Source of the DNA: Abditibacteriaceae bacterium
GTDB lineage: Bacteria; Armatimonadota; Abditibacteriia; Abditibacteriales; Abditibacteriaceae
NCBI GenBank assembly: GCA_031425655.1
Contig: JANPJS010000232.1
Coordinates: forward strand, 1-10,221
Reading direction: 5' to 3'
Length of the DNA: 10,221 bases
Part shown: positions 941 through 10,221 of the stretch, in pieces
Layout: each line of letters starts with the position of its first letter
How positions within the stretch are numbered: the first letter of the stretch is position 1
Made by a program: the position numbers and the translations under genes
The notes under the pieces: generated by a model
Databases searched by the model: none
Told to the model about the DNA's origin: nothing
What the model saw: only the letters and a program-made list of their open reading frames with translations

Positions 941-1657
941 ATGAAAAAGCTGTTTCTCATTCTCGTGCTGCTCTGCGGTGCGACCATTACCAACCGCGCT
1001 GCCGACGCGCCCGACTGGGCGCAAAACGTCGTGCTGCCCGCCACCGAAACGCCTGTAAAATTGTTCAATGGCCGTGACTTGACCGGATGGGAAGGGCAAA
1101 TCGAAAAATACTGGTCGGTCGAAGGCGGCGCGATCAAAGCGCGCAACGACAAGGCTCTGGCGCCCAGCACTTATCTTTTCACGCAGAAAAGCTATCGTGA
1201 TTTCCGCCTGCTCTTCGAGGTAAAGCAAACGCGCGGGCCGGAGTTTTCGACGATGCACTCGGCTGTCGCGGCGCTGGGCGAAAAATTCACCGATGGCGGC
1301 GACGCTTTCAGCTTCAAAGGCCCGCTGCTCATGTTCTGCCAAGACTGGGGCATCTGGGACGCCAACCGGCGCAACCGCGTGGTGCCCGTCGGGCATGGCG
1401 GCACCTGGCAGAATACCACCGAAAAAATCGGCGACTGGAACCAGATCGAAATCCTCGTGCGCGGCGAGCGTATTCGTGTGGCGGCAAACGGGAAACTGGT
1501 CTTCGACTTCACCGACAAGCCGGAAATGCTCAAAGCCTCGCCGATAGGCTTGCAATTGCACGCCAACAATCGCCCGCAGGAATGGCGCTTTCGCGGCCTG
1601 ATTCTCAGCGAAAACCCCGAAGATAAATTGCTGACCGTGGAGCCGGTCACCAAATGA
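941..1657 (+). CDS. Secreted DUF1080 (3-keto-disaccharide hydrolase family) protein
   Basis: Start moved to ATG 941 (AGGA at 929-932; signal peptide MKKLFLILVLLCGATITNRA). Family motifs LFNGRDLTGW, WSVEGGAI, YRDFRLLFEVK, GDWNQIEI, NGKLV, IGLQLH, WRFRGL. Confidence 0.85.
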   Translation: MKKLFLILVLLCGATITNRAADAPDWAQNVVLPATETPVKLFNGRDLTGWEGQIEKYWSVEGGAIKARNDKALAPSTYLFTQKSYRDFRLLFEVKQTRGPEFSTMHSAVAALGEKFTDGGDAFSFKGPLLMFCQDWGIWDANRRNRVVPVGHGGTWQNTTEKIGDWNQIEILVRGERIRVAANGKLVFDFTDKPEMLKASPIGLQLHANNRPQEWRFRGLILSENPEDKLLTVEPVTK

Positions 1658-4644
1658 AATCGAATTTTTGGACGCTGTTTTTCTGCTTGCTGTTGTTGCT
1701 TTCGCCCGGCTTCGCCGCGCCGCAAACCATCGTCCTCAAAAACGATCTCGTGCGCCGCGAATTCGCCACCGATGGCCGCGTTTGGCGCACCGTGAAATTC
1801 GCCCGCGCCGACGGCTCGGACGCGATTGTTGTGCAAAGCGACGAGTTTCATCTGCTGTTTTTTGATGGCGTGAAGCTGACAGTCGGCGATTTTATCGCGC
1901 GCGAAGAGCCTCATTTGCACAGCGAAAACGGCACGCAAACGCTGACGATTCGCTACTTTGCACCCAAAGGTGACAAAACTGGCCCCGAAATGCCGCGCGG
2001 TGTAACCATCACCTATTCGGCGAAAAAAGGTGAGCCGTATCTCCGCAAGAAAATCGAGTTTGAATTCGCTTCGCAGATTGCGGTTGACCGTCTCGACGTC
2101 GAGCGATTTTCCGTCGCGGAAAAGGCCGGGCGCGGCGGGCGCGGCGAGCCGGTTTTCGTGAAGAATTGGTTTTTCGGCCTCGAATATCCCGCCGGACACA
2201 GTCGCCACACCGACGGCAACACGCCCGTCGCCGACGCGCATCATTTTGAAAAAGTCGGCAATTACAGCGACGTAAACCTCAACGGCCACGACCGCGACGC
2301 CAACGCGCGGCCCGGTTTGCTGCGCTTGTTTCACTTTCCCGGCGACGCCAAAGCGGATGGGCAAAGCTGGAAAATCGTCTGCAAAACCGCCGTCGCGGGC
2401 ATCGGCGCGAAGCAGCAGCCGATTGAGCTGGCGTTTCAGGATTACCTCGCCACCATCGCCAAGCCGGCGCGTTCGTTCACGCATTACAACAACTGGTTCG
2501 ACCCGGCGGGCAAGAATCTGCGCGGCGACAACTTCGTCAACGTCTGGCGCGACACCAAAAAGGCGATTGAGCCTTACGGCATCAAACTCGACGCGATGGT
2601 GCCGGACAACGGCTGGCAGAACCGTCAGTCCATCTGGGAGCCGAACGCCGGACAGTTCCCCGGCGGCTTCGACGATCTGAAAAAACTCAGCGAAAACCTG
2701 CGTCGTGAAGGCACCAGTCTGGGCCTGTGGCTGTCGCTGGATGGCACGACGAACGACATTTCGTGGGGCGAAAAGCAAGGCTACGCCCGCGCGAAGGCGA
2801 ATCCGTATTTTTCGCAGTATTTCGCGCACCATTCGCTGTCGCAGCTCCAATATAAAGAGGCGATGCTGGCGCAACTGCGGCGTCTCGTCAAAGACGCCGG
2901 CATCACTTATTTCAAGCACGATTTTAATCATTTGTCGGACATCGGCGAGGGCAACGGGCATCCGCCGACCGACCGTCACGGGCACGAAGCCAACGTGGAC
3001 GCGATGATCGAAATGCTCGACGCCTGCCGCAAAGCGAACCCGCAGATTTATCAAAACCTCACCAACTGGATGTGGTTTTCGCCGTGGTGGCTGATGCACG
3101 GCGACGCCATTTGGATGCTGGCCGGCGACGACGGCTTCAACGGCAACTGGCCGGAAATTTCATCGCGCGCGATGGCCACGACCGACCGCGACGTGTATTT
3201 GTGGCGAATGTGGAGCGACGTTTCCGACCGCCCTCTTTTGCCGATTTCGCGGCTGATGACGCACGGCATCGTGCGCAACGCGGCGGGGCAAATGGAAAGC
3301 AAAGAGGACACGCTGGCCGATTGGGCTGACCATGTGATGATGTATTACGGGCGCGGCGTGCAGATGAAAGAGTGGTATCTTTCGCCCGCCGCGATGGACG
3401 CCGACCGCTGGCGCGTGCTGTGTTCGATTCACAAGTGGAGCGAGAAGCACTTTATGGCACTAACGAACACGGTTTTCGTGGGCGGACGGCCCGACGAAGG
3501 CCAGCCTTATGGCTACGTCGGCTGGGACGGCAATCTCGGCGTGCTGGTAGCGCGCAATCCGTCCGCGCAAGCGCAAACACTGCGCGTGCCGTGCGACGCG
3601 CGGACATGGTTTCGCGGCGCGCCGGGTAAGGCTTATCGGGCGCGCGTGGCGTTTCCGTATCGGGACAGTTGGCCCGCTGCGTTTCGCAGCGGAGAAACGA
3701 TGAATTTTGAGTTGCCTGGCTACGCGACGATGGCCTTTGAGATCGAGCCGGGCAAGCTGCAAAAATCCGCCGCGCTGCCCGTCGCACCGAAAATTCAAAG
3801 GCAAGGCGCGAGCGCCGAATTTAGGGTTCCCGCCGAAGCGATGTCGCGCTGCGATTTGCTGGTCATCGGCTACGACCGATTGCCTGACGTGAAAATCAAC
3901 GGCGAAACGGCCACGCCTGCGCGCCGCAACAGCGGGCGCGTCAACGATTTCGCAAGCTATGCGCGTTCGGGGATGCCGAGCGACAAAGCGCGTCCGTGGC
4001 AGATGGCCGCCTTCGATTTGCGCGCGTTTCGCGGCAAAATCGTGAGTGTTCAGTTCGCGGCGCAGGATGAAACCAGCCTCGAAAGCTGGCTGCTGCTCGA
4101 ACGCGCCGTGGCGGAATTGAGAATTGAGAATGAGGAATTGAGAAAAACGGCCAACGCGCCGTGGCCGCCCTCGCAAAACGCGCGGCGCCAGACGGTGCAA
4201 GTTCTCGCCGAAACTCGCTCCGGCGCCGCCACGCAACGTGCGCTGACCGATGCAGAATTGCGCACCATCAAAAGCGCCACGCTGACGCTGGAAGTTTTTG
4301 GCGTCAACGGCGGGCAATTTGGCGCGAAAGAAATGTGGCTGAACGGCGCGAAAATCGGCGTGTTGCCCGAAGGCGGCGATGCGTGGCAGCGCGCAAAAAT
4401 TGCGGTGCCCATCGCAGCCGTGCGACCCGAAAACCGTCTCGAAATTCGCTGCAAAGACACCGGCGACAAGTTCAAATTTCGCCGTGCCGTTTTGACGGTA
4501 GAACTGCCCGCCGGCGACTTCGTGCGCAGTTCCGCTCAAGCCAAAGCGCAAACCAGTTACGCCGATTGGGCTTTCTCGGAGGGCGCCGCCTTTCCTGTGC
4601 CTGAATCGTCTGCGCCGGTTACGCTCGATTTCAAAGCGCCATGA
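1654..4644 (+). CDS. Large secreted glycoside hydrolase, GH36/GH27 (clan GH-D)-like TIM barrel with unassigned N- and C-terminal domains
   Basis: 996 aa; signal peptide [21 protein letters not shown]; ordered clan-D-like motifs HYNNW, MVPDNGW, FPGG, LGLWLS, YFKHDFN (candidate nucleophile D423); ATGA overlap with the upstream gene. Confidence 0.72.
4114..4141. repeat. Intragenic 7-bp tandem repeat GAATTGA GAATTGA GAATGAG GAATTGA
   Basis: Read directly; AT-rich patch in a GC-rich CDS, translated in frame within [11 protein letters not shown] (aa 821-831). Confidence 0.8.
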
Positions 4645-4813: not shown

Positions 4814-5650
4814 ATGCAAATTCAAGTTGCCAATTACGCGGTCGGCGACGGCCAGCCGCTTTTATTGATTGCCGGGCCATGTTTGCTGGAAAGCCGCGAA
4901 CTCTGTTTAGAAATCGGCGCGTTCTTGAAGCATGAATGCGCGGCGCGCGGCATCAATTACGTTTTTAAGGCTTCGTTCGATAAAGCTAACCGCACTTCGA
5001 TTCACTCCGAGCGCGGGCCGGGATTGGAAAAAGGGCTGCAATTATTGGCCGAAATCGGCGACGAATTGCAGCTTCCTGTCACGACCGACGTGCATGAAGC
5101 GGGGCAATGTGAGGCTGTCGCCGAAGTCGCGGCGATTTTGCAGATTCCCGCGTTTTTGTGCCGCCAAACTGATTTATTGGTCGCCGCAGCGCAGGCGGCG
5201 ACGAAATATGGACGTGCGGTCAACGTGAAGAAAGGGCAGTTTCTCGCGCCTGAAGACATGAAAAACGTGGCGAACAAGCTGCGCGAAGCCGGCGCCGAAA
5301 ACATCTTCTTAACCGAGCGCGGCGCCACGTTCGGCTACAATAATCTGGTTGTAGATTTTCGCGGCTTGGAAATTATGCGCGGCTTCGCGCCGGTTTGCTT
5401 CGATGCCACACACAGCGTGCAAAAGCCGGGCGGCGGCGGCGATAAATCGAGCGGAGACCGTCGTTTCGTGCCCGGATTGACGCGCGCTGCTACTGCGGTC
5501 GGCGTAGACGCGCTTTTTATTGAAACGCATCCCGACCCCGACAATGCCCAAAGCGACGGCCCGAACATGGTGCCGCTGCACGAGATGCCGCGTTTGCTCG
5601 ATTCGGTTTTGGCGATTCGCAGCGCCAATCTTCTGACTTCTGACTCCTGA
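4814..5650 (+). CDS. kdsA: 3-deoxy-D-manno-octulosonate 8-phosphate (KDO8P) synthase, metal-dependent type
   Basis: Start moved to ATG 4814 (the upstream extension translates the palindrome). Motifs [67 protein letters not shown]. Cys/His/Glu/Asp metal-ligand set present. Confidence 0.95.
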
Positions 5651-5665
5651 ATTCTGTCTTCTTCC
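5631..5665. repeat. 7-bp tandem repeat TTCTGAC TTCTGAC TCCTGAA TTCTGTC TTCTTCC spanning the kdsA stop and spacer
   Basis: Read directly; contains the kdsA TGA (5648-5650) and ends 1 nt before ATG 5667. Confidence 0.8.
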
Positions 5666-6427: not shown

Positions 6428-7888
6428 ATGATTGAAACGCCGCAAACCTCATCGCCGCAGAACGTTTCCGATCCTCTGCCGCCCAACGCTGCGCGCCGCA
6501 CGGCGCGGCGTCAGCGCTTGCAAGAGCAGCGCAAGACACTAAATCCTGTCGCCGCTGCGCCAATCGAAGCGCCAAAAATCGCTGGCTCAATACCAAAAAC
6601 AGCAGTTCCGGCAGCGAAACTTAGCACTCCACAACCGAAACCGGAAACTTTCTTAGCGAAAACCGAGTTTGCGGCGCCGAAAATGGTTCCCGTTGCAGGA
6701 AAGGCATCTCAAGCGACGGCTGCCGCGCCGCGCCGCTGGATATTGTGGACATCGCTCGGCGTTCTCGGATGTTGCATTGCGGCCATCGGAGGCGCGGTGG
6801 GCACGTATCTTTCGTGGCGCGGCGGCGAGCAAATCGTGCCCAACGCCTTTATCGCCGGCGAGCCGGTCGGCGGCCTGACGCGCAACGCGGCGCGCGAGCG
6901 TTTGAAAGCGCGTTACGGCAATTTGCGCCTCACGGTGAAAACGCCCAACGAAAATTACGATTTATCTCTGCGCGAATTGGGCGGCAGGTTGGATGTCAAT
7001 CGCGCGGTCAACGATGCTTATTGGTTCGGACGCAGCGGCAGTGTTTGGCAGAACGCACCGCGCATTTTAACGGCGCGTTTCGACGAGCGCGATTTAGCTT
7101 TGCCGGTGCGCTGGGACAAAACCACGCTGAAAACGCGAATGCGCGCGGTCGCCAAAAAATACAGTCGCCCGGCGCGTAACGCCACGCTCATCGTGAGCGG
7201 CAGCGGCGTGCGCGTCGTGCCGGATGAAGCCGGACGCGCTCTCAACGTCGGCGAGACTCTGGCGCGCTTGCAAAAGCGTTATCACGTCGCATTGACCAGC
7301 ATCGAAGCGACGGTTCGCCCGGTCGCGCCGCGCATTGCCGTCGCCGATCTCGAAGGCAGCGACGTGAAATTGGAGCAATATACTACGCGCTTCAATCGCG
7401 GTTTAATCGGGCGCACGCGCAACATTCGCGTGGCGTCCGAGGCAGTCAACGGCAGAGTTTTGATGCCGGGCCAGACCTTTTCTTTCAATGCTTCGACCGG
7501 CGAGCGCACCTGGAAAAAGGGCTATCGCATGGCGCATATTTTCGAGCGCAAGCCCGGCGCTGAAGAATCCGAAGTCGTAGATGGATTAGCGGGCGGAGTT
7601 TGCCAGGTATCGAGCACGCTATTCAACGCGGTTCGCAAAAGCAATCAGCGCGTGGATTACAAATTGAAGATCGTGCAGCGCGAATCGCATTCGCTGCCGG
7701 TGCCTTACGTGCCGCGCGGATTGGACGCGACCGTGGCCTGGCCTTATAAAGATTTCAAATTCAGCAACACGCTGCCCAACCCGATTTATCTCCGCAGCGC
7801 CGTCAACGGCTCGCGCCTGACACTCAGCGTGTGGGTGCGCGTTCCAACAGGGAATCGTCTGCTGGCAAAAAATACGTCGGCAGAATAG
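6428..7888 (+). CDS. Membrane-anchored VanW-family protein with YoaR-like putative peptidoglycan-binding region
   Basis: Pro/Ala/Lys-rich N-terminus, one TM helix (WILWTSLGVLGCCIAAIGGAVGTYLSW), IAGEPVGGLT..A region, VanW motifs RTRNIRVA, LMPGQTFSFN, GGVCQVSSTLFNA, HSLPVPYVPRGLDATV, DFKFSN. Start uncertain (ATG 6392, 6410 or 6428). Confidence 0.88.
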   Translation: MIETPQTSSPQNVSDPLPPNAARRTARRQRLQEQRKTLNPVAAAPIEAPKIAGSIPKTAVPAAKLSTPQPKPETFLAKTEFAAPKMVPVAGKASQATAAAPRRWILWTSLGVLGCCIAAIGGAVGTYLSWRGGEQIVPNAFIAGEPVGGLTRNAARERLKARYGNLRLTVKTPNENYDLSLRELGGRLDVNRAVNDAYWFGRSGSVWQNAPRILTARFDERDLALPVRWDKTTLKTRMRAVAKKYSRPARNATLIVSGSGVRVVPDEAGRALNVGETLARLQKRYHVALTSIEATVRPVAPRIAVADLEGSDVKLEQYTTRFNRGLIGRTRNIRVASEAVNGRVLMPGQTFSFNASTGERTWKKGYRMAHIFERKPGAEESEVVDGLAGGVCQVSSTLFNAVRKSNQRVDYKLKIVQRESHSLPVPYVPRGLDATVAWPYKDFKFSNTLPNPIYLRSAVNGSRLTLSVWVRVPTGNRLLAKNTSAE

Positions 7889-7891
7889 CCG

Positions 7892-8002
7892 ATTAAACAC
7901 AAAGACACAAAGGACGCACAAAGAATCTCGAAGGGGAAAGACAGCGTAATATTTTCCGGCTCTTAAAATTCTTTGTGCAGCCTTTGTGTCTTTGTGTTTA
8001 AT
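7892..8002. repeat. REP-like long inverted repeat built of CACAAAG units between convergent genes; probable bidirectional terminator/RNA hairpin
   Basis: Perfect 22-bp arms 7892-7913/7981-8002, 2 mismatches, then perfect 11 bp 7916-7926/7968-7978; 41-nt loop. Confidence 0.88.
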
Positions 8003-9083
8003 GTTTTTTCGCGTTTTTACGCACGCGCTCAATCGTGGCGTTATCGAGCGCCTTCTCGAACGAGCGGAAGCCGGCTAATTTGAAGCCGTGTTTTCGGGAG
8101 ATTTCGCCGATGCGCGTGACTTGCTCGATAGTCAGGTCGCGGCCAAGAGTGAACGGCTCGTAAGTGCCTTCGAGCGCCATCAGAATCGTTTCGCTCATGC
8201 AGGCGTAGGCGGTTTTGTCGGGGAAGCCGAAGTTGAAATTAAAGTTGACGGGGCCGGGAATCTCAATCACGCCGCCTTCAATGACTAAAACGTCGTCGCG
8301 CTTTTCGATCACGGTTTTGCTGACGTCACGCGGGCGGGCCACGTCGCAAACGACGGCGCCGCGCTTCAAATCTTCGGGGAAAATCACGGCGTCTACGGCG
8401 CTCGATACCGCCAAAATCAAGTCGGCATCGCGCAGAGCTTCTTTCACTTCGGTCGTATAAGAAATCTGCGCGCGGCAGCCCGGCGTGCTTTGCGCTTTGG
8501 CGCGCAGTTCTTCCAACTTCTCAGGGTTACGTCCGGCCAAAGAAATCGCCGCGACTTTTGGCGCCAAAAGCTGCGCGCAGACCGCGCCAATCGAACCCGT
8601 CGCGCCGATAATGGCGACTTTGGCGTTCGCGATGTCGGTTTCCATCATTTCGGCGGCGCCCAGCAATCCTTCGATGGCCGTGAAAACCGTGTAGGAATTT
8701 CCGCTCGTCACGCTAATCACGCCTTCCAATTTTCGCGCGACCGTGAGGCCGGCATCGCCGACAACGGAGGTAAATGCGCCCAATCCGACGATTTTAGCGC
8801 CCAATTCAGCGCCCAAACGGCCCGTAGCGGCGATTTTCTCGTAAACGAACTCGACCGGCAGCTTTAATTGCTGTTCTGGACTCAGCGGACAGCCGACGAA
8901 CCAACCTTCGGCTTTGGCGCCGGTCGGCGATTCGATGCCGCTGATACGGCTCATCACTTTGGGCGAGATGCGTTTGGCGATTTCTTCGACCGCGATAAGA
9001 GGCAGATATTTGAGAATCGGATATTTGCGCGCCGCGTCGCGCTTTAAATCCATCGGATGTATGATGAAGGCGAACTTATTCAT
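7998..9083 (-). CDS. Acyl-ACP reductase-like NAD(P)-dependent oxidoreductase (COG5322-type; often auto-annotated shikimate/amino-acid dehydrogenase)
   Basis: 361 aa; FAFIIHP, IESPTG..AEGWFV, IVGLGAFTSVVG, TSGNSYT, Rossmann IIGATGSIG, DVARPRDV, EGG, YACMSET (Cys295), FTLGR, KHGF; same motif order as cyanobacterial AAR. Confidence 0.8.
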   Translation of the reverse strand: MNKFAFIIHPMDLKRDAARKYPILKYLPLIAVEEIAKRISPKVMSRISGIESPTGAKAEGWFVGCPLSPEQQLKLPVEFVYEKIAATGRLGAELGAKIVGLGAFTSVVGDAGLTVARKLEGVISVTSGNSYTVFTAIEGLLGAAEMMETDIANAKVAIIGATGSIGAVCAQLLAPKVAAISLAGRNPEKLEELRAKAQSTPGCRAQISYTTEVKEALRDADLILAVSSAVDAVIFPEDLKRGAVVCDVARPRDVSKTVIEKRDDVLVIEGGVIEIPGPVNFNFNFGFPDKTAYACMSETILMALEGTYEPFTLGRDLTIEQVTRIGEISRKHGFKLAGFRSFEKALDNATIERVRKNAKKH

Positions 9084-9164
9084 AGTTTTGAGTTTTGAGT
9101 TTTGAGTTTTGAGTTGTGAATTCGGGACTTTAACTCAAAATTCACAATTCAAAACTCAAAACTC
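9084..9164. repeat. Inverted pair of 7-bp tandem arrays (AGTTTTG)n / (CAAAACT)n forming a hairpin that fills the intergenic space
   Basis: AGTTTTG x4 plus AGTTGTG at 9084-9118; arms 9097-9122 and 9139-9164 complementary at 25/26; 16-nt loop. Confidence 0.9.
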
Positions 9165-10109
9165 GACCACACGTGGCTGCCATTCCAGCTTTTCCAATAG
9201 CGCGAGATATTCCGGCGCGGTGCGAGCGCCGAGCGCCACGAAAATGCCTTCCATGACATTGGTGCCGAAGCTGCGCCCGCCGAATTCGGGCGTGGTCGTG
9301 ATTAATCGCTTCAGGCCGCGCTCGCGCAGTAATTCGAGGTCGCGCGCCGTCGTGGTGTTGGTCAGAATGGTTTTTCCGTCTAATCGGGCCGGCAAATAGC
9401 GCCGAATTAGCAGAAAATCGCCAGCGATGATTTCGGCGGCTTCCATTTGACGCCGGTGCGCGGCGCTGTCTACGATTTCGTTTTGCTTGTCGCCGGTCGG
9501 GTAGAGCATTTTGAACGGCAATTTCGTGATGAGGGGCAGCATCAAAGCCGCCAGACGGCGCACCATTCTCATGCTTCGCACCGGAACATTCAAGCCAAGA
9601 TTAAACAGCAAGTCACCGAAAACGCAATTCGCGCCGGCAGCGGCAATTTCTTCGGCCATGCCAAACCGATCCACAGCCGAAACGACAAGCACGTTTTTGT
9701 TCTTGAAATCCAGCGTGCCCTTGTTTTGCAAGCGCCGGACCGTGGCGCGTTCTAAGGTATCTTTCAATCCGCTGCCATCCACCACCGGCGTGATTTTCGC
9801 CGCTGACGCCAATTTCGCCGCGTCGCGCATGATGTAGCGACGTGATCCGGCCACAACGTAAAGATCAATGCCGCCCAAGCCAATCGCGGCGACTTGGCCG
9901 TCGAGTTCGGCAATCGCCGCGCGTGCGGCGGTCAAATCGCCGTCCATCCCGCGCCGTTCGATGGAAAATTCCCGTCCGAGAAGCGTGGCCTGCGCCGTGT
10001 GATTTCGCTGCGACGAACCAAGCGAAACCGACACCACACGCAACGGCGTTTGAAGCGCAACAGGCGGCGCGTTTGTTTCAACAATCAAGGCCGGAGCCGG
10101 GGAAGTCAT
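9156..10109 (-). CDS. Conserved protein of unknown function (family I recall being auto-annotated 'quinate 5-dehydrogenase'); probable partner of the AAR-like reductase
   Basis: 317 aa from ATG 10109; motifs VVSVSLGSS.R, IGLGGIDLY, PVVDGSGLKDTLE, VSAVDRFGMA, FGDLLF, LYPTG, TNTTT, TTTPEFGGRSFGTNVMEG. Confidence 0.78.
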   Translation of the reverse strand: MTSPAPALIVETNAPPVALQTPLRVVSVSLGSSQRNHTAQATLLGREFSIERRGMDGDLTAARAAIAELDGQVAAIGLGGIDLYVVAGSRRYIMRDAAKLASAAKITPVVDGSGLKDTLERATVRRLQNKGTLDFKNKNVLVVSAVDRFGMAEEIAAAGANCVFGDLLFNLGLNVPVRSMRMVRRLAALMLPLITKLPFKMLYPTGDKQNEIVDSAAHRRQMEAAEIIAGDFLLIRRYLPARLDGKTILTNTTTARDLELLRERGLKRLITTTPEFGGRSFGTNVMEGIFVALGARTAPEYLALLEKLEWQPRVVEF

Positions 10110-10118
10110 GCGTGCGAA

Positions 10119-10127
10119 AGTATAGCA
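10119..10127 (-). promoter_or_regulatory. Candidate extended -10 promoter (TGcTATACT) for a leaderless or near-leaderless transcript
   Basis: Minus strand reads TGCTATACT-TTCGCACGC-ATG(10109); 9 nt between hexamer and ATG; no Shine-Dalgarno. Confidence 0.6.
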
Positions 10128-10133
10128 ACGGCT

Positions 10134-10203
10134 GGGCGGAGGGATGAGGGATGAGGGATGAAGGATGAGGGATGAGGGATGAGGGATGAGGGATGAAGGA
10201 TGA
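10134..10203. repeat. 7-bp tandem repeat (G/A)GGATGA x9 plus one degenerate unit GGGCGGA
   Basis: Nine contiguous units 10141-10203 (seven GGGATGA, two AGGATGA). Confidence 0.95.
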
Positions 10204-10221
10204 AAGTTGGCGCTACGCACG

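Follow-up and report, generated by a model that had tools for sequence, protein, structure and literature searches.

The window analysed here is the complete contig JANPJS010000232.1 (10,221 nucleotides; C232 of genome G000), from an Abditibacteriaceae bacterium of the phylum Armatimonadota whose genome is 97% complete. The contig is closed by two minus-strand genes spaced 72 bp apart, P0001 and P0002. We propose, with about an even chance of being right, that their products are two separate enzymes of a housekeeping route to the third, fatty-amine tail of N-glyceroyl-alkylamine phosphoglycolipids. P0001 would load an acyl chain from acyl carrier protein (acyl-ACP) or coenzyme A (CoA) onto Cys295 and free a fatty aldehyde with NADPH, as its family membership and conserved Cys suggest. 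A class III aminotransferase encoded elsewhere would then convert the aldehyde to an alkylamine, a step suggested by co-occurrence and gene fusions. In the third and weakest step, P0002 might bind a nucleotide along with a small polar substrate and act on the C3 (glyceroyl) side of the lipid, the simplest option being that it couples this part to the amine; its conserved polar pocket and its likeness to TAD, a domain of CarI, point in this direction.

A preliminary description of this DNA had called the pair a two-component fatty-acyl reductase. The functional link between the two genes is upheld by the results below, but that name omits the class III aminotransferase and a recurrent fusion to a PlsY-like domain. 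Because of these two associations, the end product looks more like a fatty amine of membrane lipids than a free aldehyde or alcohol.

The reductase P0001

P0001 (7998-9083, minus strand; 361 aa) is likely an AAR/PigE-type acyl-thioester reductase that produces a fatty aldehyde, judging from its family matches. The best family is NF053554 (PigE), which aligns with residues 43-358 at E 4e-61, below its cut-off. The AAR family TIGR04058 matches at E 1e-33 with 116.9 bits against a cut-off of 449.7, so that the equivalog threshold is missed. Sequence matches in the PDB include 4ppm (E 3e-34), 6jzq (E 9e-26) and also TAD, and the P0001 model (pLDDT 93) superimposes on AAR with a Foldseek TM score of 0.78 (range 0.76-0.78, at 26-27% identity) and on TAD with 0.81. 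Cys295 (codon at 8199-8201, minus strand) aligns with the catalytic Cys of AAR in 6jzq, is conserved in 203 of 206 aligned homologues, and occupies position 2 of helix 294-305 of the model, at the start of the C-terminal helix. The preliminary description had recognized P0001 as AAR-like with a catalytic Cys, and family matches, model fold and the conservation of that Cys all agree with it.

The GxxGxxG dinucleotide loop reads GATGSIG at residues 160-166 (8586-8606, minus strand), an assignment based on sequence and conservation; G160 is present in all 207 homologues and G163 in 206 of them. The second Rossmann strand ends with Arg185, which is found in 182/207 homologues and aligns with an Arg of AAR, suggesting that P0001 uses NADPH. 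Shikimate or quinate dehydrogenase labels are poorly founded here, as had been suspected: PF01488 matches the Rossmann part alone (residues 145-261), and the aroE models reach 20-33 bits against cut-offs of 200-252, far below equivalog level.

An alkane pathway for the aldehyde was rejected. A search for the aldehyde-deformylating oxygenase (PF11266) gave no match in the organism's own 97% complete genome, with a positive Synechococcus control, and the aldehyde is therefore not bound for alkane.

Two irregular forms of the reductase gene were seen elsewhere. One Armatimonadota genus (G076:C20, G141:C15, G132:C5 and G150:C3) has a reductase matched in two pieces, which is a single open frame in three of the genomes and suggests an insertion near residue 172. 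Some large-genome Deinococcota (L194, L195, L196, L197 and L199) have an additional AAR-like gene that stands alone, close to a beta-oxidation-type gene, and one copy has Ala at the Cys position.

The family and fold of P0002

P0002 (9156-10109, minus strand; 317 aa from the ATG at 10109) belongs to an uncharacterised family that carries the label 'quinate 5-dehydrogenase'. No Pfam, NCBIfam or PHROG family matched it, a plasmid search came back empty, and neither P0002 nor its profile gave a meaningful match among PDB sequences. The Atlas search found only clusters of its own family, and 7,248 of the 7,999 candidates scored were homologues. The quinate label of the Atlas clusters is an automatic name resting on no family, which fits the earlier suspicion of a misannotation.

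Sequence comparison does not connect the two proteins significantly. BLASTP of P0001 against P0002 gave a best E of 0.013 over a non-collinear 52-residue piece, and hhalign of the two families gave E 0.18, or E 0.069 at a probability of 0.8% with deeper alignments; none of these is significant. The deeper alignment is still collinear over 229 columns, recovers the anchors chosen in the preliminary description, and pairs N284 with C295. Those anchors are four motif pairs, all present and collinear (P0001 residues 97, 123, 150 and 292; P0002 residues 74, 107, 134 and 281). The residues singled out in that description, Cys295 of P0001 and Asn284 of P0002 (codon at 9258-9260, minus strand, the position matching the reductase Cys), are likewise as described, and so is the contrast of glycine loops, with SAVDRFG in P0002 at the place of GATGSIG.

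Structure comparison supports homology. In a search of 48,161 representative chains with the P0002 model (pLDDT 95), AAR 6jzq ranked first (VIA Z 12.3, 240 aligned residues, rmsd 5.0, 10% identity), ahead of TAD (Z 10.6) and glutamate dehydrogenase (GDH; Z 10.5). A second structure comparison placed TAD and AAR level at Z 12.0-12.5 and GDH at 11.0 or below; the match to TAD 9e50 has a VIA Z of 12.5 with 257 aligned and rmsd 5.1, and AAR and TAD structures as a whole gave 240-257 aligned at rmsd 4.5-5.2. The secondary-structure elements of the P0001 and P0002 models follow in identical order. Asn284 is position 2 of helix 283-292, so that Asn284 and Cys295 are each second in the helix after the last Rossmann strand, and in each protein a Glu follows three residues on. 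Given the shared fold, element order and helix position, it is reasonable to regard P0002, from its model, as a remote structural homologue of AAR with Asn at the Cys position. The structure check proposed at the outset, of each protein against AAR structures, thus came out positive for both (TM 0.78 for P0001, Z about 12.3 for P0002).

The preliminary description had gone further and called P0002 a distant paralogue derived by an ancient duplication with a Cys-to-Asn change. Structural homology and the N284/C295 pairing support the kinship, but no significant sequence match does. A specific duplication, and the direction of change, cannot be shown at about 10% structural identity, with GDH only 1.3 to 1.8 Z lower.

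The closeness of GDH raises the alternative that the database labels are roughly right: P0002 would then belong to the glutamate/shikimate dehydrogenase superfamily and act on an amino acid or hydroxy acid in a non-lipid, small-molecule pathway. Against the P0002 model, glutamate dehydrogenases reach Z 9 to 11 and shikimate dehydrogenases about Z 9, and the DGSG of P0002 at the domain junction resembles the NTDG stretch that AroE carries; the quinate label of the Atlas clusters, automatic as it is, agrees. However, AAR and TAD rank above these enzymes at Z 12.0 to 12.5, P0002 is matched by no dehydrogenase model of Pfam or NCBIfam, and the linked genes encode PlsY-like, START-fold and aminotransferase proteins, with no aro genes among them. 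We consider a dehydrogenase of this kind very unlikely.

Conservation of P0002 and decay of the reductase

P0002 lacks both the catalytic Cys and the glycine dinucleotide loop, and the preliminary description had offered, as one possibility, that it is a non-catalytic subunit. Such a subunit of a P0001-P0002 complex could dock acyl-ACP, channel the aldehyde or regulate the reductase, and the absence of Cys and GxxGxxG loop is what one would expect of it. The conservation pattern argues otherwise. Among 380 distinct aligned rows, 50 positions are at least 90% conserved, including S29, R35, R52, D70, D111, K116, E120, D147, R148, D166, D231, T250, T252, N284 and E287. The counts are 380/380 for D166, 378 for N284, 376 for D111, 375 for D231, 374 for R148 and 373 for K116. 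In the model, the invariant Asp, Arg, Lys and Thr residues are predicted to lie at the Rossmann strand ends and the domain junction, arranged like an active site. D166 directly follows the second Rossmann strand, and an acidic residue at this place usually grips the adenosine ribose.

The distribution of the two genes also bears on the subunit model. Of the 216 Bacillota genomes with P0002, 36 have no detectable reductase; the same holds for five Armatimonadota genomes, where even the profile finds none (four genomes of one genus plus one other). Ten of the 36 P0002-only Bacillota loci were opened; three have a Cys-less reductase remnant and seven have no AAR-like neighbour. The reductase gene behind P0002 is a Cys-less remnant in Syntrophomonas-like and Caloramator-like loci, identified by hhalign at 97.9% and E 6e-13 from a 6-sequence alignment that includes one clear homologue. 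Judged by their sequences, these remnants are natural pseudoenzymes of the AAR family. Cys-less remnants downstream of P0002 were located at L109:5495-6394, L107:8902-9780, L075:8836-9903, L092:8952-9737, L187:5178-6248 and L189:2693-3679.

That some Bacillota keep such remnants beside P0002 suggests a role of the pair beyond catalysis, which again suits a complex. The proposal of a non-catalytic P0002 is nevertheless doubtful, since P0002 is the more persistent partner and its polar residues are invariant; the reductase is the partner that decays. P0002 is likely an enzyme in its own right, with a predicted AAR/TAD-like fold.

Co-occurrence, adjacency and fusion

P0001 and P0002, each single-copy in the host genome, track each other across three phyla, as an earlier proposal to examine their co-occurrence had anticipated. 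P0002 is found in 150 of 151 Armatimonadota genomes and P0001 in 145, mostly as single copies, and both profiles match all 61 Deinococcota genomes. In a Bacillota sample of 301 genomes, 180 have both genes, 36 have P0002 alone, 2 have the reductase alone and 83 have neither; this sample contains one record titled Sumerlaeota (L046), and record titles are not fully reliable as taxa.

The genes are adjacent in 73 of the 142 Armatimonadota genomes with both positions listed, lie within 5 kb in 10 more, and are adjacent in 41 of 80 loci compared. A search for fusions, also suggested earlier, found them in both orders: 15 of the 20 long P0002 homologues examined are joined to a reductase, 13 with P0002 first (one of them degenerate) and 2 in reverse. 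Adjacency and fusion speak in favour of a P0001-P0002 complex with a non-catalytic P0002. In Deinococcota, though, the P0001-type and P0002 genes are unlinked and far apart in the examples compared, and the reductase there has another fusion partner. With these observations, the occurrence of P0002 by itself and its active-site-like residues, the subunit model appears unlikely. Complex prediction with P0001 and P0002 scored 0.00 twice and is evidence neither way.

The common setting of P0002, among the 80 loci, is a coaX-dusB-HTH-P0002-reductase-greA-lysS block, where HTH denotes a helix-turn-helix gene. Directly upstream of P0002, 42 of the 80 loci (for example L040:7444-7995) have a gene for a conserved protein of roughly 180 aa, uncharacterised apart from a weak HTH match at its N terminus. 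No match to this protein was found in the host genome; it may regulate the pathway. Two actinobacterial loci (L032:6525-8903 and L097:323-2739) have two P0002-family copies that flank or follow an HTH gene.

The aminotransferase and the PlsY-like domain

The class III aminotransferase is tied to the pair by operons, fusions and co-occurrence. Four-gene operons in three loci (L084, L087 and L097) add the aminotransferase and a START-fold gene to the pair, and in two others (L094 and L104) an aminotransferase-reductase fusion lies directly behind P0002. The host has an aminotransferase gene at G000:C314:18485-19756 (PF00202, E 3e-107), also beside a START-fold gene. The aminotransferase is present at E <= 1e-110 in 145 of 151 Armatimonadota and occurs in Thermus and Meiothermus genomes. 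In Bacillota, P0002 is found in 116 and an intact reductase in 115 of the 121 aminotransferase-positive genomes. Among the 65 remaining two-gene Bacillota genomes, 37 show the split-hit pattern of an aminotransferase-reductase fusion, and all six that were opened proved to be fusions.

A second partner points to lipids. In each of the 14 Deinococcota reductases examined, a PlsY-like PF02660 domain precedes the reductase part on the same chain and the Cys is retained; the same fusion was seen in 8 of 9 divergent Armatimonadota reductases. The canonical PlsY motifs are lost from the Deinococcota domain, judged against the genome's own PlsY, and the domain may therefore be a membrane anchor.

The PlsY-like fusion indicates a lipid without pointing to an amine, and thus favours another alternative, in which the two proteins act sequentially toward a different lipid: P0002 would turn the aldehyde into a fatty alcohol, an ether or vinyl-ether lipid, or a long-chain 1,2-diol, and the aminotransferase would be a side branch. 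Consistent with this, three Bacillota loci have a DUF2229/HGD-D/BadFG trio between the aminotransferase gene and the pair, immediately upstream of the latter (L212:8350-11395, also L211 and L213); we take the trio to be comparable to plasmalogen or ether-lipid synthases. Four proteins (cluster P0162) also join the P0002 family behind an AON-synthase-like pyridoxal-phosphate enzyme (PF00155). Yet the aminotransferase closely tracks the intact reductase (115/121) and is repeatedly fused to it, and a plain aldehyde reductase would be expected to have the canonical dinucleotide glycine loop, which is missing from P0002. A route to such lipids is accordingly quite improbable in our estimation.

A proposed route to an alkylamine tail for membrane lipids

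The reading of P0001 and P0002 as enzymes of an alkylamine-lipid route draws on two lines of background, the precedent for aldehyde-to-amine chemistry and the alkylamine lipids of Thermus and Moorella. An AAR-type domain with a class III aminotransferase is known aldehyde-to-amine chemistry, as described for PigE and related fusions in the accessible text of PMC10829540, and the portion available of a report on the tambjamine pathway gives the same aldehyde-then-amine logic with an unrelated reductase (bioRxiv 10.1101/2025.08.11.669332). The Thermus phosphoglycolipid has an alkylamine third chain whose enzymes were stated in 2022 to be unidentified, and an alkylamine phosphoglycolipid is a main lipid of Deinococcota (both from the consulted sections of PMC9636437). 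This lipid-making lineage carries both genes in every genome of the sample. N-glyceroyl alkylamines also occur in Moorella thermoacetica, according to the excerpted part of PMC13274423.

Several points weigh against this reading. Literature searches found no report of N-glyceroyl alkylamine lipids in Armatimonadota. Thermoanaerobacter sp. A7A has all three genes, and N-glyceroyl alkylamines are listed for Moorella thermoacetica and not for T. wiegelii, in an iso-diabolic acid table, seen in excerpt, that may not be exhaustive (PMC13274423). The four genomes of one Armatimonadota genus that lack the reductase by profile have P0002 and the aminotransferase. The aminotransferase reaches threshold in only 1 of the 36 P0002-only Bacillota genomes, and, with an AAR-like neighbour missing from 7 of the 10 opened loci as well, P0002 may act otherwise there. 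Aminotransferase orthology is a matter of score thresholds, with no tree, and the genomes within a phylum are kin, so that the counts are not independent and are descriptive only. The weakest step is that of P0002, whose placement on the glyceroyl side is a tentative assignment from its conserved polar residues and its likeness to TAD.

The locus

The layout given in the preliminary description, two co-oriented genes 72 bp apart, agrees with the open reading frame coordinates. Its candidate promoter, in contrast, is unsupported. A scan of 7700-10221 found a single sigma-70-like site where 1.1 are expected, which is chance level; it lies within P0002 and on the opposite strand. The contig ends 112 bp upstream of the P0002 ATG, and shared transcription of the pair is for this reason beyond judgement.

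The 72-bp spacer (9084-9155) consists chiefly of two 7-bp tandem arrays (9084-9119 and 9132-9164) that form roughly complementary arms. Further 7-bp arrays lie at 4114-4144, 5630-5662 and 10139-10203; most of the arrays coincide with gene boundaries. Elsewhere the window carries kdsA and genes for a livF-like ABC ATPase, a VanW-like protein and an M50 peptidase. A 996-aa secreted glycoside-hydrolase-like protein with a weak Melibiase match is encoded at 1654-4644, preceded by a 3-keto-disaccharide hydrolase gene (944-1657).

Significance

The chemistry of a reductase working with an aminotransferase is already known. The new elements are the structural homology of P0002 to AAR and TAD, the occurrence of fusions in either order, and the observation that decay affects the reductase and not P0002. 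Literature searches, with most subscription journals outside their coverage, found no paper on the P0002 family or on this pathway assignment. The analysis names candidates for the third-chain enzymes of the Thermus phosphoglycolipid in two genera open to genetic work, Thermus and Deinococcus, and sets right the misleading 'quinate dehydrogenase' label of a family with over 7,000 database members. If the proposed route is true, an alkylamine lipid is predicted across the phylum Armatimonadota. In its boldest form the proposal would make P0002 a new family of Cys-less AAR/TAD-fold enzymes that form the glyceroyl-alkylamine amide. Together with the reductase and the aminotransferase it would supply the core pathway, as yet missing, for three-tailed alkylamine lipids, and these would be a major class of membrane lipids in Deinococcota, Armatimonadota and many deep-branching Bacillota. 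This full version we regard as doubtful.

Comparison with known systems

Cyanobacterial AAR (TIGR04058; PDB 6jzq, 6jzu and 6jzy) shares fold, catalytic Cys and glycine loop with P0001, and among representative folds it ranks first for P0002 as well (Z 12.3). P0001 differs in falling below the TIGR04058 cut-off and in having no oxygenase partner in its genome; its partners are instead P0002 and the aminotransferase.

The PigE-type fusions (NF053554; PDB 4ppm; PP_2782/KecF, TamH and Tfer_2018) represent the best family of P0001, and relatives of P0001 join the same two domains. In the host, the class III aminotransferase partner is present, but as a separate gene. Unlike PigE, TamH and KecF, P0001 stands alone amid housekeeping genes, in a window that has neither a carrier-protein nor a synthase cluster, and its reductase family is near-universal in two phyla and joined there by the P0002 family.

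Shikimate/quinate dehydrogenase (PF01488, AroE) and glutamate dehydrogenase share a two-domain superfamily architecture with P0002 (Z 9-11). Only the Rossmann part of P0001 matches AroE, and P0002 matches no AroE model.

The TAD of CarI (PDB 9e4s and 9e50) ties with AAR as the best fold for P0002 and matches P0001 at TM 0.81. An invariant Cys and a GxGxxG loop characterise TAD, which is mostly found at the end of nonribosomal peptide synthetase modules, whereas P0002 has Asn, lacks such a loop and stands alone. In the available part of its description, TAD is proposed to form amides by a mechanism that is unknown (bioRxiv 10.1101/2024.10.28.620694). P0002, as a Cys-less relative, may illuminate this unexplained chemistry.

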